The position numbers and the translations under genes were made by a program. A model generated the notes under the pieces. It made no database searches. It was not told where the DNA came from and saw only the letters and a program-made list of their open reading frames with translations. Positions 1 through 14,443 of a DNA stretch of 14,443 nt are shown one piece after another. Location of the stretch: the NCBI GenBank assembly GCA_024404275.1, contig JAKSQG010000028.1, positions 1 to 14,443 on the forward strand. The letters are read 5' to 3'. Source of the stretch: Clostridia bacterium (GTDB taxonomy: Bacteria; Bacillota; Clostridia; Christensenellales; Aristaeellaceae). Position 1 is the first letter of the stretch. Each line of letters starts with the position of its first letter.

Positions 1-191
1 TTTTGAGTTTTTTTCACTTTTTTTTGAACTTTTTTTCGAAAACGAACGGGGTTTTAGCCTCAAACAGCTATTGTTCGTGTTTTAGTCAATATATAGTGTG
101 TACGTCATTATAACCCCACAACGGGCAACGTACAGCCAAAGAAGAGCATTCGTAACTTCCTTCAAAATTGTGCTGAAAAATTGTCCGGCTC

Positions 192-220
192 TTGTCATTT
201 TTCGTGTTTGATGGTAGAAT
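192..220 (+). promoter_or_regulatory. Sigma-A/sigma-70-type promoter for the HAD-GntR-isomerase operon
   Basis: TTGTCA (192-197), a 17-nt spacer, then TAGAAT (215-220) preceded by TG at 212-213 (extended -10). An AGGGAGG RBS lies at 235-241 ahead of the ATG at 253. Motif reading only. Confidence 0.5.
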
Positions 221-252
221 AAGTCATACCTTTTAGGGAGGCAATCATAGAT

Positions 253-981
253 ATGGATCAGAACGTTAAGCTCATTGCCATGGATCTTGACGGCACACTG
301 ACACAGCATCGTTCTCTCCTCGGAGAAGAAAACCGTGCTGTGCTGAGTGAGCTCAAACAGCATTATGAGCTGCTCATGGTCGGGGCCGGCACCTGCCGCC
401 GCATATTTGATCAGATGCAGCAGTTTCCTATAAACATTATCGGCAACTACGGTATGCAGGAATCCCGCTATACAGATAAAAACGGTTTTGAACTTATCCG
501 CAGTGAGGATGCTTCCGTTGACAAAGCAGAAGTGCTTCGCCGTTCCGCCGCCATCCGCAACAAGTATGCTTTGAACACCTGGGCCGGTGAAACGCTTGAG
601 ATCCATCCGACCGGTATGCTCACCTTTCCCGTCCTGGGCACAAAGGCGCAGATCGCCGACAAGCTAAGCTATGACCCCGATAAATCCAAGCGCACTGTGA
701 TGTATCCTTTTGTAAAGGAACTCTTTTATGACTATAACGTCATGATCGGCGGCAGCTCTTCCTTTGATATCGTTCCCGGTCGCTTCGGCAAGAAGAACGC
801 GCTGACCCGCTATATGGCAGAGCACGGCTACACCATGGATCAGGTCGTCTACTGCGGCGACGATTTCGCCGAGGGCGGCAACGATCATGATGTGTATGCT
901 GCGGGCTTCCGCTTTATCAAGGTGGACCATTATCAGAATTTCGGCCGGCTCATCCGTGAAGCCGGTCTGTTGGGAGATTGA
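253..981 (+). CDS. HAD-superfamily hydrolase, subfamily IIB (Cof-like sugar-phosphate phosphatase)
   Basis: Uninterrupted 242-aa ORF ending in TGA. HAD motif I is IAMDLDGTL at the N-terminus and motif IV-like is CGDDFAEGGNDHDV near the C-terminus. The cap region between them is typical of IIB members. Confidence 0.8.
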   Translation: MDQNVKLIAMDLDGTLTQHRSLLGEENRAVLSELKQHYELLMVGAGTCRRIFDQMQQFPINIIGNYGMQESRYTDKNGFELIRSEDASVDKAEVLRRSAAIRNKYALNTWAGETLEIHPTGMLTFPVLGTKAQIADKLSYDPDKSKRTVMYPFVKELFYDYNVMIGGSSSFDIVPGRFGKKNALTRYMAEHGYTMDQVVYCGDDFAEGGNDHDVYAAGFRFIKVDHYQNFGRLIREAGLLGD

Positions 982-984
982 TTT

Positions 985-1704
985 ATGGCTACGCTCTATT
1001 CTCAGGTGGAAAACTATGTCCGTGAGGGGATCAACAACGGCCGATGGGCACCCGGTGATGTGCTGCCCAAAGAAGTCGAGTTGTGCGAGCAGTTCGGCGT
1101 CAGCCGTCCGACGGTGCGCACCGCGCTGAGCAAGCTGGTACAGGAAGGCTACATCCAGCGCATCAAGCGTAAGGGCACCGTGGTGCGTGAATGGCGCACG
1201 CTGGCTTCCTCCACCCTCTTCATCGAATCCTTCCATAAAGAACTGGAAGAAGAAGATGTGGATGTGGTGACCGAGGTGCTCGATCGCCGTCTGGTCGATG
1301 CCCCCGAGGATGTGCGCAAGCACCTGCATCTGCCCACGGGCGCAAAGATGGCGCTGCTGCGCCGGCTGTGCTATGCCCGTGACTCCTTTGCCAAGGGACC
1401 TGTTGTGCTGACCACTTCTTATCTGAATGAAAAGATCTGGCCCGTGCTGAAGGACTCCGACCTGGAGCATGTTTCGCTGCATGCCGTAACGGAGCAGTGC
1501 GACTGCAAGCGTGTGCAGATGGAAAAGGAGATCACGCTGCACTATCTGACCGTTGACGAAGCACGCATTCTGTGCGAAAGCACCGGTGCGCCTGCCTTCA
1601 AGGTCAGCACCGTCAGCTATGACCGTCACGGACGTGTGGTGGACTGGTGCGAAAGCATCTATCCCCCAAACCGCAACAAGTTTACCCTGTGCATCCGCAA
1701 GTAA
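985..1704 (+). CDS. GntR-family transcriptional regulator, HutC subfamily (wHTH plus UTRA effector domain)
   Basis: 239-aa ORF starting 3 nt after the HAD stop and ending in TAA. The N-terminal winged helix is LPKEVELCEQFGVSRPTVRTALSKLVQEGYIQRIKRKGTVV. The roughly 160-aa C-terminal length is consistent with UTRA. Confidence 0.85.
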   Translation: MATLYSQVENYVREGINNGRWAPGDVLPKEVELCEQFGVSRPTVRTALSKLVQEGYIQRIKRKGTVVREWRTLASSTLFIESFHKELEEEDVDVVTEVLDRRLVDAPEDVRKHLHLPTGAKMALLRRLCYARDSFAKGPVVLTTSYLNEKIWPVLKDSDLEHVSLHAVTEQCDCKRVQMEKEITLHYLTVDEARILCESTGAPAFKVSTVSYDRHGRVVDWCESIYPPNRNKFTLCIRK

Positions 1705-1734
1705 TCTGAATTCTATATAAAGAAGGTGTTTTGG

Positions 1735-2661
1735 TTGCGCCTTTCCACCTCCAGCAATATCTGCAATTTTGACCGCGGTCAGCCCTACATGGTGTCGTTT
1801 GAAGAAGCCCTCCGCATCTGCGCCGCCGCCGGTTACAAATACATCGATGCCAATCTTTGCGGTCTTGCCCGCCCCGGCAAGAAGGTCAGCCCTCTGACGC
1901 AGGAGGACTGGATGGAGAAGGCAAAATAGTGGCGGCAGCTGGCGGATGAGCTGGGGATCACGCTTTTGCAGGGTCACGCCTGGTGGGCCATCGGTCGCGG
2001 CGTACAGCAAGGAGAAAACCCCGGTGACGAATTCGGGGAAGAGATGATGCGCCGCAGCGTACTGGCAGCGGAGCAGTTGGGCATCCGTGAGCTGGTGGTG
2101 CACCCCTACTCGGTCTTCCGGGGCGACACAATGCTGACAGATGAGGGGTACGCCGACAATCTGCGCTATTTCAGCCGTTGGGCGGCATTTTTCAAGCAGC
2201 ACAACATGGAAATGTGCATTGAAAACATGGTTGGCAAGCCCGGCAGTGAAAACCCGAGCATCTGGGCTGACGTCACCCGTCTGTGCCGTCTTGTCGACGA
2301 GATCGGCGAGCCGCATGTGGGGACTTGTCTGGATACCGGCCATGCATTCCTGTCAGGAGATGATCCCGCCGCATGCGCGCGGCAAATGGGCAGCCGGCTC
2401 AAGGCTACACACATTGCCGACAACAAGGGCGACCGGGATGCGCACGTCTCCCCCTTCATGGGCAGTATTGACTGGCCGGAGCTGGTGCGTGCCCTGCGTG
2501 ACATCGGTTATCAGAATGATTTCTCCTTTGAAACGCAGAACCTGTCCGCCTGCTTCCCGCTGGCGGTGCAGCCGGAGATCATCCGCTTCTCGTATACGCT
2601 GGGTGAATACCTGCTCTCCGACGCACTGTTTACCGATATCGGACAGCAGCCGCCGATGTAA
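1735..2661 (+). CDS. Sugar phosphate isomerase/epimerase (xylose isomerase-like TIM barrel), interrupted by an in-frame TAG at 1927-1929
   Basis: Track ORFs 1726-1929 and 1966-2661 are in the same frame. Reading through gives ...EDWMEKAK[TAG]WRQLADELGITLLQGHAWW..., a continuous protein of about 308 aa. Family-typical motifs are present: VVHP, CIEN, LDTGH, FSFE. The likely start is TTG 1735 (M-RLSTSSNI...), 6 nt after AGAAGGTG; GTG 1726 is an alternative. The gene ends in TAA. Under code 11 it would be a pseudogene or split gene. Confidence 0.75.
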
Positions 2662-2674
2662 ACTTTGCTGATTG

Positions 2675-2711
2675 CCGCTTTCTGTATGATACAGGAAGCG
2701 GTTTTTTGTTT
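2675..2711 (+). terminator. Rho-independent terminator of the HAD-GntR-isomerase operon
   Basis: An 11-bp stem pairs 2675-2685 (CCGCTTTCTGT) with 2691-2701 (ACAGGAAGCGG), including one G-U pair. The loop is 5 nt and is followed by TTTTTTGTTT (2702-2711), 14 nt after the TAA stop. Confidence 0.75.
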
Positions 2712-2739
2712 GCGCAATCTGATTCCGCTGTGTTATAAT
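2710..2739 (+). promoter_or_regulatory. Sigma-A-type promoter for the CotH-family gene
   Basis: TTGCGC (2710-2715), an 18-nt spacer, then TATAAT (2734-2739) with TG at 2731-2732 (extended -10). GGAGG RBS at 2772-2776, 8 nt before the ATG at 2785. Confidence 0.5.
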
Positions 2740-2784
2740 ATATATCTGTACGATTTTGCCGCGTTCTGCACGGAGGCTTGAGAT

Positions 2785-4776
2785 ATGAAAAAAACATTCC
2801 TTCTGCTTATGTTCCTGCTGGCGCTGCTGCCCATTGGCGTAAGCGCCGACATCATCATCAATGAGGCCATGGCCAGCAACGGCGTGTTCCTCAATGAACG
2901 CCACGACGACTGGATCGAACTGTACAACAGCGGCAGCGACAAGGTATCGCTGGAGGGATGGTATCTGAGCAACGATCCCTTCAATCTGCACAAGTGGAGC
3001 TTTCCCGCCAAGGCTTCCATCAAAAAGGACGGCTACCTCGTTATTTATTGTACCGATGATGATGTGATCACAGGCGGTCCCTCCGGTGCCATCTATGCCA
3101 ATTTCAAACTGTCCGCCAAAGGCGAATCGGTCTATCTGACCGACCCCGACGGCAGCACGACCTCTGTGACCTTCGGTGCACAGTTTGGCAACATATCAAG
3201 CGGTATTCCAAGCGGAGGTGAGGGCTGGCATTACCTGGAGAAGTCCACCCCCGGGGCTGTCAACAGCAGCGCCGCTTATGACGCCCGTGCCAAGGAGCCT
3301 GTCATCGAAACCGCCGCCGGCTTTTACAGCGGCAGCGTCATCGTGACCATGAGCTGTGCCGAGGGACAGGAAATACGCTACACCACGGACAGCAGCGAGC
3401 CCGACCGCAATTCAACGCTGTACACGGAGCCCTTTGAGATCAAAAAGACCACGGTCATCCGCGCCCGTGCCTTTGGCAGTGAGCTGCTCGGCTCCACCAC
3501 CGCAGGCAGCACCTTCTTCATCAACGACGCCGCGGTGGATGCGTCGGTCCCCATCGTTTCCATCTATACCGATCGCGATTACTTCTTCTCCAACAAAATG
3601 GGCATCCTCGTGGAAGGCAACGCCAAGAACCCCAATTATAACCGCAACTGGGAATACCCGGTGACCATTGAGTATTTTGACGAGAACAAGACCCGTGTGA
3701 TCGCCCAGACAGGCAGCGTCAAGGTCAACGGCGGCTCCTCCCGTCAGAATCGTCAGAAAAAATCACTGGCCATTTACGCCCGCAGCGTATACGGCGGCAG
3801 CGACAGCTTTGATTATCCCTTCTTCGAAAACCGCGATTACGATTCTTATTCCACCATTCTGCTGCGCTCCACCGCCTCCGACTTCAACTCCTGCCGCTTG
3901 CGCGACGCGGTATTCGGTGAGATGAGTGACGGTCTCGGCGTCTACTATCAGGCAGGTCGCCCCATCATTGTCTTCATCAACGGCGAATACTACGGTCACT
4001 ACAATCTGCGTGAAAAGCCCAACAAGTATTCCCTGGCACAGTGGGAGGGCATTACCGACCCCGATGTCATCAAGGGCGTGGATATTCTGATGGGCACCGG
4101 CATGAACGCCACCGATGTGGTGCAGGGCAGCTCCGCCGACTGGGTGGAACTGATGAACTACTGCCGGAAGAACAAACTGGACACTCCCGAAAAACTGCAG
4201 TATGTGCTGGACAGGGTCGATATCGACAGCCTGTACAACTACGCTATCTTTAATATCATCCTCGGCAACTACGATATCGGCAACACCCGCGTATATCGTT
4301 TCCCCGGTGGAAAATGGAAGTTTATGCTGCATGACATCGAATCCGGCTGCATGGGCGACAAGAGCGATCCCCTTGGTTCCATCATCCGCAGCAAAAGCAG
4401 CAAGACCAACAACTATCCTCACTATATTCTGGCCGCGCTGCTGGAGCAGGAGGAATACAAGGATCTGTTCCTGCGCCGCACCGCGGAGATCGTCAAAAGC
4501 AATTTCCTTTATTCCGAACAGGTCAAGCCCATCTATGAAAAATGGTCCGCCAAGCTGGAAGAGCTGCTGCCGCGGCATCTGACCAAGTTCCGCAGTTTCA
4601 GCAGCATCAAAGACTGGCGTGTCAATGTGAAAGCCAGCATGTATTATGCGCGTATCCGTCCGCGCAAGATGATCGATCAGATCTGTTCCAAGCTGGGCGT
4701 CCAATCCGCCGCCAAGCAGGAGTATTTCGGTGAGGTCTTCAAGCTGCTGGACATTTACAATGCCGAAGGAACATAA
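2785..4776 (+). CDS. Secreted CotH-family protein (signal peptide, lamin-tail domain, chitobiase/hexosaminidase-C-like Ig domain, CotH kinase-like domain)
   Basis: 663-aa uninterrupted ORF ending in TAA. Signal peptide: MKKTFLLLMFLLALLPIGVSA. LTD-like segment: IIINEAMASN...DDWIELYNSGSDKVSLEGWYLSND...GYLVIYCT. CHB_HEX_C-like segment: FYSGSVIVTMSCAEGQEIRYTTDSSEPDRNSTLYTEPFEIKKTTVIRARAF. CotH-like core: SLAIYAR...LRSTASDFNSCRLRDAVF...VFINGEYYGHYNLREKP...MLHDIESG. Confidence 0.8.
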   Translation: MKKTFLLLMFLLALLPIGVSADIIINEAMASNGVFLNERHDDWIELYNSGSDKVSLEGWYLSNDPFNLHKWSFPAKASIKKDGYLVIYCTDDDVITGGPSGAIYANFKLSAKGESVYLTDPDGSTTSVTFGAQFGNISSGIPSGGEGWHYLEKSTPGAVNSSAAYDARAKEPVIETAAGFYSGSVIVTMSCAEGQEIRYTTDSSEPDRNSTLYTEPFEIKKTTVIRARAFGSELLGSTTAGSTFFINDAAVDASVPIVSIYTDRDYFFSNKMGILVEGNAKNPNYNRNWEYPVTIEYFDENKTRVIAQTGSVKVNGGSSRQNRQKKSLAIYARSVYGGSDSFDYPFFENRDYDSYSTILLRSTASDFNSCRLRDAVFGEMSDGLGVYYQAGRPIIVFINGEYYGHYNLREKPNKYSLAQWEGITDPDVIKGVDILMGTGMNATDVVQGSSADWVELMNYCRKNKLDTPEKLQYVLDRVDIDSLYNYAIFNIILGNYDIGNTRVYRFPGGKWKFMLHDIESGCMGDKSDPLGSIIRSKSSKTNNYPHYILAALLEQEEYKDLFLRRTAEIVKSNFLYSEQVKPIYEKWSAKLEELLPRHLTKFRSFSSIKDWRVNVKASMYYARIRPRKMIDQICSKLGVQSAAKQEYFGEVFKLLDIYNAEGT

Positions 4777-4793
4777 ATCATCAACATAAAAAC

Positions 4794-4840
4794 CACCCTT
4801 GCACTCGCGAAAGAAATCTCTTCTTCTCTGTGCAAGGGTG
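4794..4840. terminator. Bidirectional rho-independent terminator between the convergent CotH and solute-binding-protein genes
   Basis: A perfect 11-bp stem pairs CACCCTTGCAC (4794-4804) with GTGCAAGGGTG (4830-4840) around a 25-nt loop. It is flanked by TTATTATT on the plus side and, on the minus strand, by the T-tract that is the complement of ATAAAAA (4787-4793). Confidence 0.65.
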
Positions 4841-4871
4841 TTATTATTGAGGGTAATTGTCTTTTCTTTTG

Positions 4872-6443
4872 TTACCTTCTGAAACTGTCCAGACCGCGCA
4901 GCACCTACGGCTCGCGCACGTCACGGGCATCGGTGAACATCTCGCGCGTCAGGATGGCGCCGTTGCGGTAATACAGGCAGATGAACGGACAATCCTGCCA
5001 GAACAGATTCTGAATGTCGATGAGCGCGCTCTTATAGGAATCAAAATCCAGCGCAGCGCGCAGCTTTTTGTGCAGCGCATCCATGGAGGAATTTTTATAA
5101 CGGCCGTAGTTGCCGGTGTTGCCGCTCATCAGCAGATAGCCGGGGTCCGGCGTAAAATCGATGTTGTAGGCGCAGATGCATAAGTCATAGCTGGCGGCAT
5201 TCAGTTTTTCCTGCGCGTTTTTGAAGGTATAGGTCACCACGGAGCATTCAATGCCCACCGCCGCAAGATCATCGGCGATGCGGTTGGCCGTTTCCACGCG
5301 TACGGAATTGTCCTGCTCCTCATACACATAAAAGCGCAGATGCAGATTGGCTTTGCCGCCGTTGATGATGGTATCCCGCACGCCGTCGCCGTCGGTATCG
5401 GTCCACCCGGCTTCCTCCAGCAGCGCCATGGCCTTCTGGCGGTTGGTCTCCTGTTTGGTGGCACCATCCCAGTACGTCCAGGTATTGGGAATCAGCGGCG
5501 TATCGGTACGGGTGACCATGCCGTAATACACATTGTTGGCGATGTCGTCAATGTTGATGGCGTAGCGGATGGCCTGACGCACCCGCACATCATTCAGCTC
5601 CCGGGACGCGTTATTGAGCATGAGCACTTCCAGCTGGGTAGTGCGGAAGTCAATGTTATAAGAGTTGACGCCGCTGCGGTACTGTGCCGCCGTGATGGCG
5701 CGGGTCAGGATGGCATCGACGTTACCGTACTCGTAGTCGGTGATCAGGCTGCGGCTCTTGTCATAGAAGATCACCATGATCTGTTTATAGTCGGGTGCCT
5801 GTTTCCACCAGCCATTGTAGGCGGACAAAAGCAGATAGGAATCCTTATCGTAGATATCCAGATAATAGGCGCCTGTGCCCACGGGGTTAGCCGCCTGGAC
5901 CTCGCTGCTTTTGAGGACAGGGAAGGTCATGGCATACAGGAAACCGAAATTGGCGCGGTCTGTCGTGATGACCACGGTGGAGTTGTCACTGGCCTGAATG
6001 CTGTTGACAAAATACTTGAGGGTGGAATAGCGGCCTGTTTTTTCTTCATTCGCCAGGCGCAAAATCTCCTGCGCCGTCGCTACCACATCATAGGCTGTCA
6101 GCGGCGTGCCATCGTGAAAGGTAATGCCTTTGCGTAAATAAAAATACCATGTTTTTCCGTTCGCGGAGGAGGAGTAGCTTTCGCACAGACAGGGCTGCGG
6201 CATATAGTCATCATCCAGCTACAGCAGACCCTCGTACATCAGGTCGGTCACGCTCATGAATTCGCGCTCCACCGGCACCAGCGGATTGACCTTTTCGGTG
6301 GCCACCGAAATAATGCCGATATGCAGCGCGTCAGACACATAATCCGCCCCCGCCGTCTGCGGCATCATGGAAAGCAGCAGCACTGCCAGCAAAAGCAGGC
6401 TGTTAATGCGCGTCCGGATAGAAATGCTGGAAATAGATCGCAT
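4872..6443 (-). CDS. ABC-transporter substrate-binding protein, family 5 (peptide/nickel/opine type), with in-frame TAG at 6219-6221 and a second TAG at 4905-4907
   Basis: Track ORFs 6219-6500 and 4905-6203 are in the same frame. Read-through gives ...SVTDLMYEGLL[TAG]LDDDYMPQPCLCESYSSSANGKTWYFYLRKGITFHDG..., the canonical N-terminal region of SBP_bac_5. The probable start is ATG 6441-6443 (MRSISSISIRTRINSLLLLAVLLLSMMPQTAGA signal peptide). The standard-code end is TAG 4905-4907; reading through adds VLRGLDSFRR and then TAA at 4872-4874. Under code 11 this is a split or pseudo gene (6219-6443 plus 4905-6203). Confidence 0.7.
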
Positions 6444-7104
6444 AGGCTTCGTAAACCTTTCTTGCGTAATAGCGGGTATCATCGGTGGGGATGGTATCAA
6501 TGGTCAGCGTGTGTCCGTCCTCCGAATGGTTCATCATCCAGTACTTGACATTGTTAGCCCCGGCGTGATAGGCACTGGCCATTTTGATGGGGTCGCCGTT
6601 GAATTCCCGGCTCAGACGCCCCAGATAATAGCAGCCGTAACGGATGTTGGTCTCGGGGTCGAACATATCGTCAAAGGTGGTCTTTCCCTCTTCATCCAGC
6701 CAGCGGCAGATATCGGTGAAGGTGCCCTGCATGATCTGCATCAGTCCGCGGGCACCCACGCTGCTGACCGCCTTTGGGTCATAGCTGCTCTAACGCAGGA
6801 TGATGGCTGCCACGAAAGCGGGATGAATGTCGTTTTCGGCGGCGTACTTTTCAATCCAGTCACGGTAGCGCACCGTGTGGCGGTTGACCAGCGTTTCATA
6901 GGCGGCGGCTTCCCGCTCTCTTTCCTGCTCCAGCTGACGGAGGTTGCCCTTCATCAGACCCAGCAGCAGAATGGACAAAATCAGCAGAAGGCTCAGCACG
7001 ATGACTGTTTTAAGCGGAAAAGGCGCTTTCATGGAAAAGAACAGCACTGGTCGCTTCTTTTCCTGTTCGGAACGCCGTCTGCGAACCGTCTGATCTTCAC
7101 TCAT
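6403..7104 (-). CDS. Membrane-anchored lytic transglycosylase (SLT domain, GH23), interrupted by an in-frame TAG at 6790-6792
   Basis: Track ORFs 6790-7176 and 6403-6759 are in the same frame. Read-through gives ...HPAFVAAIILR[TAG]SSYDPKAVSSVGARGLMQIMQGT...AYHAGANNV, the SLT signature, with the TAG at the catalytic Glu of the E-S motif. The N-terminus has a basic stretch followed by a TM helix (TVIVLSLLLILSILLLGL). The likely start is ATG 7102-7104 (MSEDQ...), which overlaps the coaE stop as ATGAGTGA. The gene ends in TAA. Confidence 0.75.
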
Positions 7105-7708
7105 GGCGCATGCTCCTTTCCGCGGCGCGCAGCAACCGCCGCGCTCGCTTTTGCGTTTCTCCAAGCGGTCTGTCATTTTGGATCACATGATCCGCCCGCT
7201 TTGCTTTCTCGTCAAGCGGCATCTGCGCATCGATGCGCGCTTCCGCTTCCGCTGCCGGCAGATGATCGCGGCGATGGATGCGGCGGATCTGCGTCCCCCG
7301 GCGCACGGTGACGCACCAGGTCTCATCGCACAAGCGGTCCATGCCCGTTTCAAACAGCAGGGGGACATCCCACACCAGCACCGCTGCCGCGCTTTCCCCG
7401 GTCTGCCGCTGCATGCGGCCAATGACCAGCGGATGCAGGATGGCGTTCAGCTTTTCCAGCGCTTCGGGATGCCCAAACACCGCTTGCCCGAGGGCACGGC
7501 GGTTGAGCACTTCACCGTTGAATACCTCATCCCCAAAGACAGCGCGGATCTGCGGCAAAGCTTCGCCGCCCTCCGCGGTCAGTTCATGGGAGATGGCATC
7601 AGCATCCAGCACCGGTACACCCAGCGTACGCAGATAGCGGGCCACCGTGCTTTTGCCGCAGGCGATGCCGCCTGTCAGACCGATTACATACGGCTTATTT
7701 GGTTTCAT
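7097..7708 (-). CDS. coaE: Dephospho-CoA kinase
   Basis: 203-aa ORF ending in TGA. The N-terminal P-loop is VIGLTGGIACGKSTV, and the length and layout are typical of CoaE. It lies immediately downstream of polA, a common Firmicute arrangement, and its start overlaps the polA 3' end by 14 nt. Confidence 0.9.
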   Translation of the reverse strand: MKPNKPYVIGLTGGIACGKSTVARYLRTLGVPVLDADAISHELTAEGGEALPQIRAVFGDEVFNGEVLNRRALGQAVFGHPEALEKLNAILHPLVIGRMQRQTGESAAAVLVWDVPLLFETGMDRLCDETWCVTVRRGTQIRRIHRRDHLPAAEAEARIDAQMPLDEKAKRADHVIQNDRPLGETQKRARRLLRAAERSMRHE

Positions 7709-10238
7709 ACCAGCTCTTTCCGGTGTGCACTTCTACGGTCAGCGGCACATCCAGCTCCATCACGTGCTCCATGCAGTCGCGCAGCAGCGCTTCCACCACA
7801 GCGCTTTCCTCCTCGGGGCATTCGATGATCAGTTCATCGTGTACCTGCAGAATGAGACGAGCCTTCAAGCCCTTCTCCTTGAGGGCACTGTGCACACGCA
7901 CCATGGCCAGCTTGATAATATCGGCAGCTGTGCCCTGCACAGGCGTGTTCATGGCGGCACGCTCGCCGAAGGAGCGCACATTGGCATTGGCCGCCTTGAG
8001 CTCGGGCAGTCTGCGCACACGGCCGAACAGCGTGCGGCTTTCCCCCGCGGCATAGCCATCGGCCACCGCTTTTTTCATAAAGCGCTGCACGCCGGGATAG
8101 GTCTCAAAATACTTTTGGATGAAGGCATCGGCTTCCTTGCGGCTCATGCCCGTGTTGCGCGCCAAGCCGAAACCGCTGATGCCATACACCAGCCCGAAGT
8201 TGACCGCCTTGGCGTTGGAGCGCAGCTGCGGCGTTACCTCTTCGATGGGGATTCCCGCCACCTCTGCCGCCGTACGGGCGTGGATATCCTGTCCCCTGCG
8301 GAAGGCGTCCAGCATGGCGGCATCGCCCGAGAAGTGCGCCAGGATGCGCAGCTCGATCTGGCTGTAGTCGGCATCCACCAGCACACAGCCGGGGGCAGCC
8401 GTGAAGGCGCGGCGGATTTCCCGTCCCAGCGGCGTACGCACAGGAATGTTCTGCAGATTGGGCTCCGCGCTGGAGATACGCCCCGTAGCGGTGCCCGTCT
8501 GGTCGAAGCTGGTGTGGATGCGCCCGTCGGGCCCGATCTTTCGGATCAATGCCTCGATGTAGGTGCTGTTCAGCTTGCTGACCTGACGATACTCCAGAAT
8601 CATGCCAATGACAGGATGATCGTCCTTCAGCGCTTCCAGCGTATCGGCATCGGTACTGTAGCCCTTCTGCGTCTTTTTGCCGGCACGAAGGCCCAGCTTT
8701 TCAAACAGGATAACACCCAGCTGCTTGGGAGAATTGATGTTGAAGGTTTCGCCCGATGCGGCATAGATCATTTCCTGCAGTTCCTTTTCCCGGGCGGACA
8801 GACGGCTGCCGATATCCCGCAGCACCTGCGCATCGGCGCAGAAGCCCACGCTTTCCATATCGCGGAGTACAGTCAAAAGCGGCAGCTCGATCTCATCCAT
8901 GACGCGGGTCAGTTTCTCTTTTTTCAGGGCGGCTTCCTGACGCTGCATCAGCGTCAGCACACCCGAGGCATCGTTATCGGCAAAGGCGGACAGATGATAA
9001 CTCTTTTCCTGCGGATTGAGCACATACGCCGCCAGCATGGTATCAAAGGCAATTTCGGGCAGCGGACGGCCCTCCGCCGCAAGGCGGTGCAAAAGACGCT
9101 TGCCGTCATGGGTAATGACCTTGCCCTGCCACAACGCATCACAGTCGGAAAGCGGATCGCCGCCCATCGCGGGCAGATCAAACAGCCCGATCTGACCGCC
9201 CAGCTGCACACGGGCACGGCTGGTGCCCAACGCTGCCGAAAGGGTTTCATCTCCCAGCAGCACGGCAGGGATACCCTTCGCCAGTTTCTGCGCGGCGGCG
9301 GCATCCAGCTCGGTCCAATCTTCAAAAACAGGGGCTTCAACCGGCGTTTCGGTCTCGGTCTCCGCTGCGGCGGCGGAAGTGCCGAACTCTTTTTCCAGAC
9401 GCTGCGCCAGCTGCATCAGACCGTACTTTTTCATCAGCGGCACGGCGTCCGCCATATGATGCACATCGTAATCGTCATAGTGCGGCACGATGGGAATGTT
9501 GCGCAAGATGGTGGCAAGATGCTTGGAGAAGCGGCCGCTCTCGGCGCCGTTCCGTACCTTTTCGCCCAGCTTGCCTTTGATCTCCTCCGCGTGGTCGAGT
9601 ACGTTTTCCAGTGTGCCGTATTCGGTCAACAGCTTGACCGCCGTCTTTTCGCCGATGCCGGCGATGCCTGGAATATGGTCGCTGCTGTCTCCCATCAAGC
9701 CCTTCAGGTCGGTGATCTGCGCGGGCGTGACACCGAACAGCTCCTTGACGCGGGCAGGGGTGCACTCCTCAATTTCGGAAATGCCCTTGCGGGTCAAAAG
9801 CAGCGTGACCTCGTCATCCACCAGCTGCAGGGCGTCGCGGTCGCCGGTCAGCAGCAGCGCGTCCAGACCGTGGGCACGGCAATCCAGCGACAGGGTGCCC
9901 AGAATGTCGTCCGCCTCATAGCCGGAAAGGCTCAGTACCCCCAGCCCCATGGCGGACAGGATCTCCTTGATGATGGCAAACTGGGGCTTGAGCTCCTCCG
10001 GCGTGGCGGCACGCCCGGCCTTGTATTCCGCATACTCGGTATGGCGGAAGGTGGGCGCATGCTCGTCAAAAGCCACGGCGCAGCAGCGGGGCTGACGCTC
10101 CCGGATACAACGCAGCAGCATCATCAAAAAGCCATGCACGGCATTGGTATACACCCCGTCATGGTCCATCAGCGGCAGGGCATGAAAAGCCCGGTACATC
10201 AGGCTGTTTCCGTCCACAATCAGCAGTACATCCCGCAT
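7695..10238 (-). CDS. polA: DNA polymerase I
   Basis: The 5'-nuclease N-terminus is MRDVLLIVDGNSLMYRAFHAL. Pol motif A is VLVDADYSQIELRILAH, motif B is RSNAKAVNFGLVYG and motif C is LQVHDELIIE. The start is placed at ATG 10236-10238, 6 nt after GGAGGTG. The longer track ORF (to 10403) adds a non-homologous leader. The gene ends in TAA. Confidence 0.95.
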   Translation of the reverse strand: MRDVLLIVDGNSLMYRAFHALPLMDHDGVYTNAVHGFLMMLLRCIRERQPRCCAVAFDEHAPTFRHTEYAEYKAGRAATPEELKPQFAIIKEILSAMGLGVLSLSGYEADDILGTLSLDCRAHGLDALLLTGDRDALQLVDDEVTLLLTRKGISEIEECTPARVKELFGVTPAQITDLKGLMGDSSDHIPGIAGIGEKTAVKLLTEYGTLENVLDHAEEIKGKLGEKVRNGAESGRFSKHLATILRNIPIVPHYDDYDVHHMADAVPLMKKYGLMQLAQRLEKEFGTSAAAAETETETPVEAPVFEDWTELDAAAAQKLAKGIPAVLLGDETLSAALGTSRARVQLGGQIGLFDLPAMGGDPLSDCDALWQGKVITHDGKRLLHRLAAEGRPLPEIAFDTMLAAYVLNPQEKSYHLSAFADNDASGVLTLMQRQEAALKKEKLTRVMDEIELPLLTVLRDMESVGFCADAQVLRDIGSRLSAREKELQEMIYAASGETFNINSPKQLGVILFEKLGLRAGKKTQKGYSTDADTLEALKDDHPVIGMILEYRQVSKLNSTYIEALIRKIGPDGRIHTSFDQTGTATGRISSAEPNLQNIPVRTPLGREIRRAFTAAPGCVLVDADYSQIELRILAHFSGDAAMLDAFRRGQDIHARTAAEVAGIPIEEVTPQLRSNAKAVNFGLVYGISGFGLARNTGMSRKEADAFIQKYFETYPGVQRFMKKAVADGYAAGESRTLFGRVRRLPELKAANANVRSFGERAAMNTPVQGTAADIIKLAMVRVHSALKEKGLKARLILQVHDELIIECPEEESAVVEALLRDCMEHVMELDVPLTVEVHTGKSWYETK

Positions 10239-10259
10239 AGGTCGCACCTCCACAATACC

Positions 10260-10288
10260 ATTATACCACACCCGCGGCAGGAATACAA
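10260..10288 (-). promoter_or_regulatory. Sigma-A-type promoter for the polA-coaE-slt-SBP operon
   Basis: On the minus strand: TTGTAT (complement of 10283-10288), a 17-nt spacer, then TGgTATAAT (TATAAT is the complement of 10260-10265). The GGAGGTG RBS follows just downstream. Confidence 0.5.
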
Positions 10289-10320
10289 AGGGGCGAAAAG
10301 CGGCTTGCATGGTAAAAAGC

Positions 10321-10349
10321 TTGCATCCACAGCGGTTTTTGACTATAAT
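10321..10349 (+). promoter_or_regulatory. Sigma-A-type promoter for the deacetylase-parE-parC unit
   Basis: TTGCAT (10321-10326), a 17-nt spacer, then TATAAT (10344-10349). It is divergent from the polA promoter. Confidence 0.55.
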
Positions 10350-10380
10350 ATAAGGTATGAAAGTATGCTTTTCCGGGAGG

Positions 10381-11736
10381 ATGAACGTTTTGAAGCGATT
10401 CACCGTGCTTTTAGCCGTTTTGATTTTGCTTCTGCTTGCCGCCTTTGCGCACGCGGAAGAGGTTTCCTATTATACCGAAACGCCGGAGCTGCTCCGCTTC
10501 AGCCAGACCATCAGTGAGAAAAAAACGGTCGGCAAAAAGGGCTGGTACACCTGTACCTATCCCAAAACCGCCCGTGAGGATGTCAACGCCGCCATCGCCT
10601 CTTTGGTGGACGACATGACCGCCGCTCAGCTGGACGCGCTGAAGGCGCTCAAGTGTGAGGACGAAGCCTGGCTGGATACGGGAGCCGAAATCAGCCGCAC
10701 CGGCGAAAAGTATCTGAGTTTTCTGCTCATCAGCCGGCTGTCGAGCGACAACACACTGGTCAACACCGATATGACCACCCGTGTCTATGACATGGAAAGC
10801 GGTACTCAGCTTTTTCTGACGGATCTGTTTGACACCGGGTCCGATTTTTGGACACTGCTTGAGCAGGAGGTGCGCACCCAGCTGACCGCTTACTTCGGCG
10901 AGGCTGTCGCCCCCGACACCGACGCGCTGGACGCCCTGTGCCGCCGCGAAGCGCTGGAAAAGGCCGATTTTACGTTGGAAGCCGCATCTCTGCAGCTGCA
11001 CTACCCGGCGGATGTACTCTACGAAGGCAAGGAAACGCTGATGCATGTGCGCCTGTGGTACAGGGATGTGCGCCCGCTGATGAACGGAGCCGCTGCCCAG
11101 AGTGTGGATAACAGCCGCTACCGCATGGTCGCAATGACGTATGATGACGGTCCCTCGGTCTATACCAAGCGGCTGCTCAATTATTACCGCAACTATGGCT
11201 ATAAATGCACCTTCTTCGTCATTGGTCAGCGCTTTGGCTATGCCAACACCCTGCAGCGTGAACATGACGCCGGGCATCAGGTGGCGAGCCATACCTACGC
11301 GCATGACATCGTCACCCGCAAGACCATTGACTGGTGCCTGGATGACTGGGCTAAAATGACAAACGGCATGCAGCGCCTCTTTGGCAAAGCGCCGGTTTGC
11401 ATGCGTGCCCCGGGCGGCAACGACCACAGCTATATGTACGAGGGCAATGTGCCGCTCATCCACTGGTCATGGTCGGCAGCGGACGCAGTGGGCAACAACT
11501 GGAGCGATGAAAAATACGCCAACCGCATCATTGCCAATGTGCGGGATGGCGGCATCATCCTGATGCACGATATCAACAATCTGGTAGCGGATTACTCCAT
11601 CCGTGTACTGCGTCATCTGCAGGACAACGGCTGGATGGCCGTGACCATCGAGGACCTGTTTATGGACGCCGGCTACGCACTGGAAAGCGGCCACATCTAC
11701 TACAGCACCCACGAGATCATCACCGAACCCAAATGA
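10381..11736 (+). CDS. PdaC-like polysaccharide/peptidoglycan deacetylase (signal/anchor peptide, DUF3298/DUF4163-like domain, CE4 NodB domain)
   Basis: CE4 motifs are present: MTYDDGP, ASHTYAHD, MRAPGGN and IILMHD. The N-terminal hydrophobic segment is KRFTVLLAVLILLLLAAFAHA. The start is ambiguous: ATG 10357, ATG 10381, or TTG 10390 (9 nt after GGAGG at 10376-10380). The gene ends in TGA. Confidence 0.8.
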   Translation: MNVLKRFTVLLAVLILLLLAAFAHAEEVSYYTETPELLRFSQTISEKKTVGKKGWYTCTYPKTAREDVNAAIASLVDDMTAAQLDALKALKCEDEAWLDTGAEISRTGEKYLSFLLISRLSSDNTLVNTDMTTRVYDMESGTQLFLTDLFDTGSDFWTLLEQEVRTQLTAYFGEAVAPDTDALDALCRREALEKADFTLEAASLQLHYPADVLYEGKETLMHVRLWYRDVRPLMNGAAAQSVDNSRYRMVAMTYDDGPSVYTKRLLNYYRNYGYKCTFFVIGQRFGYANTLQREHDAGHQVASHTYAHDIVTRKTIDWCLDDWAKMTNGMQRLFGKAPVCMRAPGGNDHSYMYEGNVPLIHWSWSAADAVGNNWSDEKYANRIIANVRDGGIILMHDINNLVADYSIRVLRHLQDNGWMAVTIEDLFMDAGYALESGHIYYSTHEIITEPK

Positions 11737-11746
11737 GAGGATCAAA

Positions 11747-13723
11747 ATGGCAGATAATTCTTACAACGCGGGAAAAATTCAAGTTTTGGAAGGTCTGGAC
11801 GCGGTCCGTATGCGTCCCGGCATGTACATCGGCACCACCTCCGTGCGCGGTCTGCACCACCTGTTATGGGAGATCGTGGACAACGGCATCGATGAGGCGC
11901 TGGCCGGCCATGCCACCGAGGTACAGGTAACGCTGCACAAGGACGGCTCCGCCTCCGTGTGGGATAACGGCCGCGGCGTGCCCGTGGATGAGCATCCCAC
12001 GCTGCATGTCACGGGCATTGAGCTGATCTATACCCGCCTGCACGCGGGCGGCAAATTCGGCAACGACAACTATGCCTATTCCGGCGGTCTGCACGGTGTT
12101 GGCGCTTCGGTGGTCAACGCGCTTTCCAAATGGATGGTAGTCGATTCCTACCGCGATTGGACGCACTATCAGATGCGCTTTGAGACCGTATGGGATGAAA
12201 AAGAAAAGAAGTTCCACGGCGGCCGCCCCGTGACCGGGCTGCAGAAGCTCGGGAACACCCGTAAGCGCGGCACGCTGGTGCGCTTCATGCCCGATGATAC
12301 CATTTTTACCGAGGATCACCGTTTTAACGGCGAGACCGTTTCCCGCCGTCTGCGGGAACTGGCGTACCTCAACAAGGGGCTCAAGATCCTGTTTGTGGAT
12401 GAGCGTGCCAAAGAAGAAAAGGACCGGCAGATGGAATTCTGCTATGCCGGCGGCATCAGCGATTATGTCAAATTCCTGAACAGGGACAAATCACCCCTGC
12501 ATGATGAGCCCATCCTGCTGGAGGGCAAAAAGGACGACGTCATCTGCTCCGTGGCCATGCAGTACACCGACGGCTACACCGAATCGGTGTTCAGCTATGT
12601 CAACAACATTCCCACCGGTGAGGGCGGCACCCACGAGATGGGCTTCCGCACCGCCATGACCCGCGCCTTCAACGATTATGCCCGCAAGATCGGCGCGCTC
12701 AAGGAAAAGGACAACAATCTGGCCGGTGAGGACTTCCGTGAGGGTCTGACCGCCGTGGTGACCGTGATGGTCAAAAACCCGCAGTTTGAAGGACAGACCA
12801 AGGGACGCCTTGGCAACAGCGAGGTCAAGCCCGCCGTGGAAGCCATTCTGTCGCTGCGGCTGGCTGAGTTCCTGGAGAACCTCAAAAACGGCGAGCTGGC
12901 GCAGAAGATCATTGAAAAAGCCGTCAAATCGGCCAAAGTGCGCGAGGCTGCCCGCAAGGCGCGTGACGCCGCCCGCGTGCGCAACTCGCTGGAAGCTGCG
13001 CCGCTGGTGGGCAAGCTGTCCAGCTGCACCGGCCGCAAGCCGCAGGAAAACGAGCTGTTCATCGTGGAGGGCGACTCCGCAGGCGGCAGCGCCAAGCAGG
13101 GCCGTGACCGCCGCTTTCAGGCCATTCTGCCGCTGCGCGGCAAGCCGCTCAACGCCGAAAAGAAGCGCCTCGATCAGGTGCTGGCCAATGAAGAATTCCG
13201 CAGCATCATCACGGCGCTTGGCACCAACATCGATGAGGACTTTGACCTGAACTCCCTCAAATATCACAAGGTCATCATCCTCTCCGATGCCGACCAGGAC
13301 GGCGCGCACATCCGCGCCATTCTGCTCACCTTCTTCTACCGCTACATGCGCGAGCTGGTAGCACAGGGACATGTGTACATCGGCATGCCGCCGCTGTATC
13401 TGGTCAAGCGCCCCGGCAGCGAGGAATACGCCTATGACGACAAAGCGCTGCGTGAGCTGACCGCCGGTAAAAAGAACTATTCCATCCAGCGCTACAAAGG
13501 TCTGGGTGAAATGAACCCTGAGCAATTGTGGGAGACCACCATGGACCCTGCCCGCCGCCGCCTGATGCAGGTCACGCTGGAGGACGCCGCCCGCGAGGAT
13601 GAGATCATCACCGTGCTGATGGGCGACAAGGTCGATCCCCGCCGTGAATACATCATCAGCCACGCCGAATTCAACAAGGTGGACAATTTTGAACAGCACG
13701 CCGATCACATCGGCCAGAAATAA
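11747..13723 (+). CDS. parE: Type IIA DNA topoisomerase subunit B, probably topoisomerase IV ParE
   Basis: 658-aa ORF ending in TAA. GHKL ATPase motifs: LHHLLWEIVDNGIDEA, DNGRGVP, GLHGVGASVVNALS. Toprim motifs: ELFIVEGDSAGGSAKQGRDR, PLRGKPLN, IILSDADQDGAHI. The ParE-over-GyrB call rests on the ParC-like partner gene downstream and the absence of a dnaA/dnaN/recF context. It is not certain. Confidence 0.8.
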   Translation: MADNSYNAGKIQVLEGLDAVRMRPGMYIGTTSVRGLHHLLWEIVDNGIDEALAGHATEVQVTLHKDGSASVWDNGRGVPVDEHPTLHVTGIELIYTRLHAGGKFGNDNYAYSGGLHGVGASVVNALSKWMVVDSYRDWTHYQMRFETVWDEKEKKFHGGRPVTGLQKLGNTRKRGTLVRFMPDDTIFTEDHRFNGETVSRRLRELAYLNKGLKILFVDERAKEEKDRQMEFCYAGGISDYVKFLNRDKSPLHDEPILLEGKKDDVICSVAMQYTDGYTESVFSYVNNIPTGEGGTHEMGFRTAMTRAFNDYARKIGALKEKDNNLAGEDFREGLTAVVTVMVKNPQFEGQTKGRLGNSEVKPAVEAILSLRLAEFLENLKNGELAQKIIEKAVKSAKVREAARKARDAARVRNSLEAAPLVGKLSSCTGRKPQENELFIVEGDSAGGSAKQGRDRRFQAILPLRGKPLNAEKKRLDQVLANEEFRSIITALGTNIDEDFDLNSLKYHKVIILSDADQDGAHIRAILLTFFYRYMRELVAQGHVYIGMPPLYLVKRPGSEEYAYDDKALRELTAGKKNYSIQRYKGLGEMNPEQLWETTMDPARRRLMQVTLEDAAREDEIITVLMGDKVDPRREYIISHAEFNKVDNFEQHADHIGQK

Positions 13724-13747
13724 CCGTCCCTTTCAAAGGAGCCTTTT

Positions 13748-14443
13748 ATGCCTGTAAAACCGCCGGCACCCCCCATTACCCCCGATATCATTCAGATGCC
13801 GCTGGAGGACGTCATGCACATGAGCATGATGCCCTATGCCGAGCATGTCATTTTGGAGCGCGCTCTGCCGCGTGTGGAGGACGGACTCAAGCCCGTACAG
13901 CGCCGCATCCTGTATACCATGATGGAGCTCAGCAACACCCCCGATAAGCCGCACCGCAAGTGTGCGCGTATCGTGGGTGACTGTCTGGGTAAATACCACC
14001 CCCATGGCGACAGTTCTGTCTATGACGCTTTGGTGCGCATGGCACAGGACTTTTCCATGCGTGAGCAGCTGGTGGACGGTCACGGCAACTTCGGTTCGCT
14101 GGACGGTGACAGCGCCGCCGCCATGCGTTATACCGAGGCACGCATGGCTCCGCTGGCACTGGAAATGCTGCGCGATATTGACAAGGATACCGTGCCCTTC
14201 CACCTGAACTTCGACGATACCCTGAAGGAACCCGACATCCTGCCTGCCCGTTTCCCCAACCTGCTGGTCAACGGTACCTCGGGCATTGCGGTCGGTCTTG
14301 CCACGAATATTCCGCCGCACAACCTCAAGGAGGTCATCGACGCCGTCAACCTGCGCATCGATCATCCCGAGGCAGGTCTGGATGAGTTCATGAAGGTGCT
14401 GCCCGGTCCTGATTTTCCCACCGGCGGCATTCTGCTGGACACC
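13748..14443 (+). CDS. parC: Type IIA DNA topoisomerase subunit A, probably topoisomerase IV ParC (5' partial, continues beyond the window)
   Basis: I translated this by hand because it is not on the ORF track (no stop within the window). It starts at ATG 13748, after AAAGGAG. The sequence reads ...[24 protein letters not shown]...[25 protein letters not shown]...[10 protein letters not shown] (active-site Tyr)...[29 protein letters not shown] and KPVQRR favour ParC over GyrB's partner GyrA. Confidence 0.8.

Follow-up and report, generated by a model that had tools for sequence, protein, structure and literature searches.

An in-frame TAG at the catalytic glutamate position of a lytic transglycosylase gene suggests that an uncultured Clostridia lineage reads UAG as glutamate

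Introduction

The stop codon reassignments described for bacteria in the literature from 2021 to August 2026 are UGA-to-Trp and UGA-to-Gly only (Shulgina & Eddy, PMC8629427; PMC13462651 for UGA-to-Trp in Eggerthellaceae; bioRxiv 10.64898/2026.04.02.715157; bioRxiv 10.64898/2026.05.24.727570), and these sources include the gTranslate preprint and the KACI screen of ~2.7 million assemblies. In the same literature UAG is reassigned to pyrrolysine (Pyl) in archaea, and TAG-to-Gln recoding is confined to phages. We found no report, in the literature searched up to August 2026, of a bacterial code in which UAG means glutamate (Glu), or of any bacterial reassignment of UAG to a canonical amino acid. 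Here we describe a stretch of 14,443 nucleotides of a Clostridia bacterium (GCA_024404275.1, contig JAKSQG010000028.1, positions 1 to 14,443), called the window below, in which the gene of an SLT-domain lytic transglycosylase (SLT) carries a TAG codon at the position of the catalytic glutamate. On the basis of sequence comparison with related genomes, we conclude that this lineage probably decodes UAG as glutamate.

The known UGA reassignments, to tryptophan (table 4; Mycoplasmatales, insect endosymbionts and Eggerthellaceae metagenome-assembled genomes, MAGs) and to glycine (table 25; Absconditabacteria/Gracilibacteria), resemble the case proposed here. They are likewise chromosome-wide, they place in-frame stops in conserved genes, and they keep the other two stops as terminators. 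In the present lineage, however, the codon is UAG, the proposed amino acid is Glu and the implicated release factor is release factor 1 (RF1), not RF2, and the genome, with 57% GC, is neither AT-rich nor reduced. The TAG-to-Gln recoding of crAss-like, Lak and other gut phages (code 15) involves the same codon, with in-frame TAGs in otherwise intact genes from gut metagenomes. Those are phage genomes with phage-borne suppressor tRNAs that insert glutamine (Gln), whereas the window is a piece of bacterial chromosome, with an order of polA, coaE, SLT and a solute-binding protein (SBP) gene that ordinary MAGs also have, and the partner codon of TAG is GAG, not CAG.

To our knowledge, UAG-to-Glu exists only in eukaryotic nuclear codes (peritrich ciliates, Blastocrithidia), every accepted bacterial stop reassignment is one of UGA, and UAG is reassigned only in phages (to Gln), in pyrrolysine users and in eukaryotic nuclei. 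In the nuclear UAR-to-Glu codes (table 30 in peritrich ciliates, table 31 in Blastocrithidia) UAG is read as Glu by a tRNA-Glu derivative, as we propose here; in these eukaryotes, however, UAA is reassigned too and eRF1 is altered, while here only UAG would be affected and TAA is the commonest terminator of the lineage. Pyrrolysine decoding (Methanosarcinales, some Bacillota; genome-wide in some archaea) likewise gives UAG a sense meaning in prokaryotic cells, but it needs pylTSBCD and inserts a lysine derivative, whereas the evidence here points to canonical Glu. The mechanism that we propose, a tRNA with a CUA anticodon and removal of the competition by RF1, is the same as in laboratory amber suppression and in recoded, RF1-deleted E. 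coli (C321.deltaA, RFzero). Those strains are engineered, whereas the lineage would be their natural, Glu-inserting equivalent, if the proposal holds.

Like the family 1 lytic transglycosylases (GH23; E. coli Slt70, P. aeruginosa Slt, MltE, MltC), the SLT protein has the SLT catalytic domain with its fold, the GLMQ and AYNAG-type motifs and, if TAG is read as Glu, the E-S motif. It differs from them in being a short, single-domain Gram-positive form with an N-terminal membrane anchor and without the U and L domains of Slt70, and in that its catalytic Glu would be spelled TAG.

Results

The TAG codon of SLT aligns with the catalytic glutamate of Slt70

The SLT gene lies at 6403..7104 on the minus strand and its 233 codons run from the ATG at 7104 to the TAA at 6405-6403. 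Codon 105, at 6790..6792 (read 6792-6790), is a TAG and is the sole interruption of this frame. The minus strand reads ATC CTG CGT TAG AGC AGC TAT GAC CCA AAG GCG GTC AGC AGC GTG GGT GCC CGC GGA CTG ATG CAG around it. With the TAG entered as X, the protein matched the Pfam SLT profile PF01464 with E = 2.7e-26 and 91.9 bits (cut-off 21.3), residues 84-195 corresponding to profile positions 3-110 of 117. In a phmmer search against PDB, residues 69-231 matched residues 442-604 of Slt70 (1QSA/1SLY) with E = 2e-23. This alignment runs without gaps from residue 69 to residue 105, and it places the TAG on Slt70 residue 478, within 'AIARQESAWNPKVKSPVGASGLMQIM'. The activity of Slt70 needs Glu478, as stated in a passage of PMC6587636 that cites van Asselt 1999.

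The column of the TAG was Glu in all 19 SLT matches obtained by tblastn in the genome contig loci retrieved with PolA, and it was an invariant Glu across 31 of 31 SLT homologues, which were 42-78% identical. Columns G120, L121, M122, Q123, H180, A181 and G182 were invariant as well, and the motifs 'GARGLMQIM' and 'AYHAGANNV' are present downstream of the TAG. In the window the E-S motif consists of the TAG followed by Ser, and its Glu is present only if TAG is read as Glu. The comparison with related genomes supports this reading.

We also modelled the orthologue P0001, which is 78% identical to the window protein, with AlphaFold2 (pLDDT, the predicted local distance difference test score, 90.3). 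The top 35 Foldseek matches of this model in PDB were all lytic transglycosylases (Slt, Slt70, LtgA, MltE, Cj0843, MltC), with probability 1.00. The PDB matches include, by their entry titles, 'inactive mutant E503Q' of P. aeruginosa Slt and 'inactive mutant E64Q' of E. coli MltE. Because these E-to-Q mutants are inactive, Gln at SLT codon 105 would be expected to kill the enzyme.

An earlier note on this DNA, made from the sequence alone, had placed the TAG on the catalytic Glu column of SLT. The PF01464 match, the ungapped alignment to Glu478 of Slt70 and the invariance of the column bear this out, and the Slt70 motif that the note gave was essentially correct. The inactive E503Q and E64Q structures likewise support its argument that the site constrains the meaning of TAG, Glu being required and Gln giving a dead enzyme. 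It had further singled out SLT as the one TAG site in the window that constrains the amino acid, which agrees with what we found at the other TAG columns, described below.

TAG alternates with glutamate codons among related genomes

We compared the window (genome A) with four related genomes by codon-level alignment over 11 window-region genes. These were genome B (ENA ERZ27247129; L001, L095), genome C (Logan SRR27361835; L091, L094), genome D (GCA_045599485.1; L092, L097) and genome E (Logan SRR21150928; L093), and all five come from independent assemblies. Genome D was covered over positions 1-26379 of a 38.9-kb contig and the other genomes by shorter pieces. Genomes B-E were 89.5-98.5% identical to the window in nucleotide sequence.

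Across the five genomes the window region contains 10 distinct in-frame TAG sites, in the GntR, TIM-barrel, SLT, SBP, polA, deacetylase, parE and parC genes. In none of the five genomes did the 11 genes contain a frameshift or an in-frame TAA or TGA, and all their true terminators were TAA or TGA in every genome covering them.

Seven of the sites are polymorphic. At SLT codon 105, TAG in A and C corresponds to GAG in B and D. Codon 161 of the GntR gene (1465..1467, plus strand) is TAG in genome E (L093), GAG in A, B and C and GAA in D. In the TIM-barrel gene (sugar-phosphate isomerase/AP_endonuc_2, 1735-2661, plus strand) codon 65 (1927..1929) is TAG in A, GAG in B, C and D and GAA in E, and codon 281 (2575..2577) is TAG in C (L094), GAG in A, B and E and GGT in D. 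Codon 161 of the polysaccharide deacetylase gene (10867..10869, plus strand) is TAG in B (L001) and GAG in A, C and D, and codon 146 of parE/gyrB (12182..12184, plus strand) is TAG in D (L092) and GAG in A, B and C. Codon 359 of polA (9162..9164, minus strand), which lies in a hypervariable linker, is TAG in D and GGC in the others, the window included. The remaining three sites have no alternative codon: codons 75 (6219..6221) and 513 (4905..4907) of the SBP_bac_5 gene (6443-4872, minus strand) are TAG in all four covering genomes, A, B, C and D, and parC codon 237 is TAG in both covering genomes, B and D.

Hence GAG or GAA is the partner codon at six of the seven polymorphic sites, polA codon 359 being the only one with a partner that is not a Glu codon. 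CAG, AAG, TGG, TAY, TTG and TCG were partners at none of the seven. We compared this with a null model of one-step neutral mutation weighted by the codon usage of the window, with a transition:transversion ratio from 1 to 4. The probability of at least six Glu partners in seven was about 1e-4 (5e-4 at a ratio of 1, 2e-5 with transitions favoured fourfold). CAG-to-TAG and TGG-to-TAG changes are transitions and would be expected to dominate random nonsense mutations. Most of the TAG sites were private to one genome.

That SLT requires Glu becomes positive evidence for a Glu meaning of TAG because relatives carry GAG at SLT codon 105 and because TAG alternates with GAG at five other sites. At the level of sequence, these comparisons show that UAG behaves as a synonym of GAG in the lineage and is translated in frame.

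An 11th in-frame TAG occurs in the extension of the genome D contig. The gene of a hypothetical small membrane protein in genome D (L097 21195-21674, minus strand) contains an in-frame TAG, 'RIHRMR[TAG]GELYGQL', and has been called as separate 37-aa and 112-aa products.

The SLT domain downstream of the TAG is under purifying selection

A single G-to-T change turns GAG into TAG, and the NCBI record (MAG GCA_024500545.1) annotates SLT as two separate fragments, of 104 and 118 aa (MCQ2453539.1 and MCQ2453538.1). Both facts fit a genuine nonsense mutation, with SLT as a pseudogene, or a sequencing or assembly error, and the earlier note had named a knockout mutation or sequencing artefact as the direct competitor of a recoded TAG. 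We assessed the ratio of nonsynonymous to synonymous substitution rates (dN/dS). Between genomes A and D it was 0.015-0.12 for the 11 genes, which indicates purifying selection, and SLT overall had 0.08. Over SLT residues 106-233 the comparison of A with D gave 0.058; that of A with C, where both genomes have the TAG, gave 0.026, from 17 synonymous against 2 nonsynonymous differences. Beyond the TAG, purifying selection on the catalytic domain is strong.

The SLT TAG is also present in an independent Logan assembly (L091). Protein clusters at 90% identity contained 8 distinct N-terminal SLT fragments of 104 aa, each with '...AAIILR' at its end; they stem from assemblies in NCBI, ENA and Logan. 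The clusters also contained 2 distinct full-length variants of 233 aa, which have Glu. Given the 8 distinct variants that end at the same residue, the TAG allele is widespread and diversified; neither an artefact nor a recent dead allele can account for this. In-frame TAGs, and TAGs only, also occur in polA, parE and parC. The competitor named by the earlier note is thus refuted by the independent assembly, the 8 variants and the dN/dS of 0.03-0.06 downstream of the TAG. Disrupted copies with further lesions, which the note associated with a true pseudogene, were not seen in relatives; no copy had a frameshift or an in-frame TAA or TGA. We consider a nonsense mutation or an error extremely improbable.

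At the SLT site (window 6760-6830, minus strand, compared with L091, L092 and L095) the haplotype is 'CGT TAG' in A and C, 'CGG GAG' in B and 'AGG GAG' in D. Over the wider region B is the genome nearest to A, whereas C is the nearest across the N-terminal half of SLT. This switch of the nearest relative along the region indicates recombination among strains of the lineage. We considered a repeated origin of the SLT TAG and dropped it: A and C share the 'CGT TAG' haplotype, the region is mosaic, and a single origin with recombination suffices.

TAG is a rare terminator in sister lineages

The next closest PolA outside the lineage was 74% identical, and the nearest sister lineages (L083-L090) were at 71-74%. 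These have the same polA-coaE-SLT-SBP synteny with uninterrupted genes, and they end 2 of 33 genes with TAG (~6%), so that TAG is a real, rare terminator in them. Rare termination at TAG is an expected precondition for codon capture. In the window none of the 10 complete genes ends in TAG. TAG makes up 4 of the 311 Glu codons of the window (~1.3%, counting TAG as Glu). Since TAG accounts for so few Glu codons, the sites are mostly private and TAG is very rare in the sister lineages, a recent codon capture fits these data.

The lineage was absent among the GTDB species representatives in a PolA scan, in which the best match was 62% identical. NCBI holds two MAGs of the recoded lineage, GCA_024500545.1 and GCA_045599485.1. 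Completeness may be underestimated for such MAGs because TAG splits their genes, and curated sets may leave them out for that reason.

Evidence against a glutamate meaning, and other meanings of UAG

Several observations weigh against a glutamate meaning of UAG. Only the SLT TAG falls on an invariant column. SBP codon 75 is Tyr in the two nearest outgroup lineages; parC codon 237 is Lys in PDB homologues, among the matches listed; and parE codon 146, among the five PDB ParE matches listed, is Glu in three and Lys in two. ARAGORN detected no tRNA gene in the window or in ~40 kb of lineage sequence, and hence no tRNA(CUA) was found. Genome D ends 0-1 of 24 genes at TAG as compared with ~6% in the sister lineages, a difference that is not significant with so few genes (P ~0.2). 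The GDSL-lipase gene of genome D (L097 19186-19821, plus strand) ends '...FLRHFL TAG ACA AAC GGC TGA', with a TAG three codons before the TGA. This TAG could be a residual terminator, or it could be Glu followed by a three-residue tail; as a real stop it would count against the glutamate meaning too.

The Tyr (TAY) and Lys residues at these columns would suit a UAG that is read through but not as Glu specifically, by a Gln, Tyr, Lys or Trp amber suppressor or by near-cognate decoding after loss of RF1. Natural or phage recoding of TAG is, moreover, usually to Gln (code 15; PMC9523058). We regard such a reading as unlikely. It predicts that TAG/CAG, TAG/AAG or TAG/TAY polymorphism should dominate, yet the partners were Glu codons at six of the seven sites and these codons at none; for Gln, the expected CAG-to-TAG change is a transition, the commonest class of mutation, yet none was seen. 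With an amber suppressor SLT would be catalytically dead, and with near-cognate decoding it would be heterogeneous, while the strong purifying selection on SLT in TAG-bearing genomes is unexpected with Gln at the general-acid position.

At SBP codon 513, with 12 aligned outgroup rows, Glu is found in 7 rows from 5 distinct lineages (L083 group, L002, L008, L011, L019), Gln in 3 rows from one lineage (L087 group), and Asp and Lys once each. Among the outgroup residues at aligned TAG columns, Gln occurs only at this one, as a minority in one lineage. The end of the window SBP, '...DVREP[TAG]VLRG...', corresponds to '...DVREPE/QILRG...' in orthologues, and 10 more residues follow the TAG up to the TAA at 4872-4874, just as in the orthologues. 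At SBP codon 75 the residue differs widely among orthologues (Y, S, R, A, T, K, Q, E, D, I). The columns of SBP513, parE146, parC237 and SBP75 are compatible with Glu and not diagnostic.

The 12 TAG sites had no common flanking nucleotide context, the RNA downstream of the SLT TAG folded no better than shuffled sequence (z = -0.7), and Rfam had no match in the window. Because of these three results, general decoding of UAG fits better than a site-specific programmed recoding. The same RNA showed no structure resembling a pyrrolysine insertion sequence (PYLIS), which bears on the idea that UAG means pyrrolysine genome-wide, as proposed for some archaea. Pyrrolysine is the only known natural sense meaning of UAG in prokaryotic cells, and there is a report of archaea that use UAG-to-Pyl genome-wide (Kivenson et al. 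2025, cited by bioRxiv 10.64898/2026.05.24.727570). The partner codons at the polymorphic sites are, however, those of Glu and not of Lys, and Pyl at the general-acid position would abolish the chemistry of a lytic transglycosylase. We judge this meaning very improbable.

We also designed a pattern of a tRNA-Glu-type anticodon arm with CUA from Limiplasma tRNA-Glu. A scan of metagenome contigs with this pattern, and of viral contigs with a close variant of it, gave one match each, and neither was a tRNA.

UAG could also be ambiguous, a leaky stop at which RF1 is kept and a Glu-inserting suppressor tRNA competes with termination. Such a state would suit a reassignment that looks young, with TAG at 1.3% of Glu codons and its sites mostly polymorphic and private; the TAG three codons before the gene-end TGA in genome D also agrees with it, as does the finding that zero TAG terminators in ~24 genes is no significant difference from sister-lineage usage. 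On the other hand, TAGs stand in the single-copy essential genes polA, parE and parC and are fixed in SBP and parC, and therefore read-through must be efficient. Furthermore, TAG terminates none of the 11 window-region genes in the genomes that cover them. An ambiguous UAG thus seems to us quite improbable.

Gene content of the window

Re-reading the window with TAA and TGA as the sole stops gave 11 genes, 10 of them complete. On the plus strand these are a HAD hydrolase, a GntR regulator, the TIM-barrel sugar-phosphate isomerase and CotH; on the minus strand SBP_bac_5, SLT, coaE and polA follow, and then, again on the plus strand, a polysaccharide deacetylase, parE/gyrB and parC/gyrA. Besides the one in SLT, the window holds three further in-frame TAGs, at TIM-barrel codon 65 and SBP codons 75 and 513.

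The genes polA and coaE overlap by 14 nt (7695-7708), coaE and SLT by 8 nt (7097-7104), and SLT and SBP by 41 nt (6403-6443). Because of these overlaps, and because the order is conserved in sister lineages (L083, L087), the arrangement suggests that polA-coaE-SLT-SBP_bac_5 is one operon, linking the lytic transglycosylase with a family-5 (SBP_bac_5) solute-binding protein. The topoisomerase pair at 11747-14443 (plus strand), beside the deacetylase gene, matched ParE/ParC (topoisomerase IV) structures better than GyrB/GyrA structures; the NCBI record labels its A subunit 'DNA gyrase subunit A'.

Three long minus-strand open reading frames (ORFs), 664-2343, 10411-11463 and 13733-14365, were rejected as genes, as they had no Pfam matches and are antisense shadows of plus-strand genes. 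Two of the three 'end' in TAG, which is misleading for naive ORF calling. A shadow ORF of 956 codons (7647-10517, plus strand) lies antisense to polA (10238-7695, minus strand), and this frame is free of stops because polA has no TTA, CTA or TCA codons. Across all 11 genes these three codons number 4, 1 and 6 of 4608. The out-of-frame TAG trinucleotide is also rare (6/9194). An ancestor in which TAG was nearly eliminated would fit this depletion of TAG and CTA.

Discussion

According to the reading that we favour, the SLT gene would be intact and its product active, the catalytic general-acid Glu being simply spelled TAG. TAG would be a rare synonym of GAG throughout the lineage, and new TAGs would arise from GAG by G-to-T change and segregate as near-neutral polymorphisms. 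Decoding would depend on a tRNA with the anticodon CUA that is charged by glutamyl-tRNA synthetase (GluRS), to which the shortest route may be a single change, C36-to-A, in tRNA-Glu(CUC). RF1 would have been lost or weakened, leaving TAA and TGA, which are read by RF2, as terminators. The window is chromosomal DNA of an uncultured Clostridia lineage, whose habitat, to judge from the sources of the related MAGs, may be the ruminant or animal gut.

In summary, it is likely that we have described the first natural bacterial code that gives UAG the meaning of a canonical amino acid, Glu. The reassignment would be at an early stage and limited to one clade of gut Clostridia, of the rank of a species or genus, in which GAG and TAG segregate between strains even at a catalytic residue. 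If this is true, the lineage adds a new natural code, that of a free-living, GC-balanced bacterium reading UAG as Glu, and RF1-dependent termination would be dispensable in nature, as it is in E. coli without RF1. As a young case, the clade would allow comparisons of strains that are at intermediate stages of codon capture, and it would hold a natural Glu-inserting pair of amber-decoding tRNA and GluRS for synthetic biology. The code would also account for split 'pseudogenes' in the annotation of such MAGs and for their possible failure in quality filters, and the compatibility of these bacteria with phages and with horizontal gene transfer may be affected.

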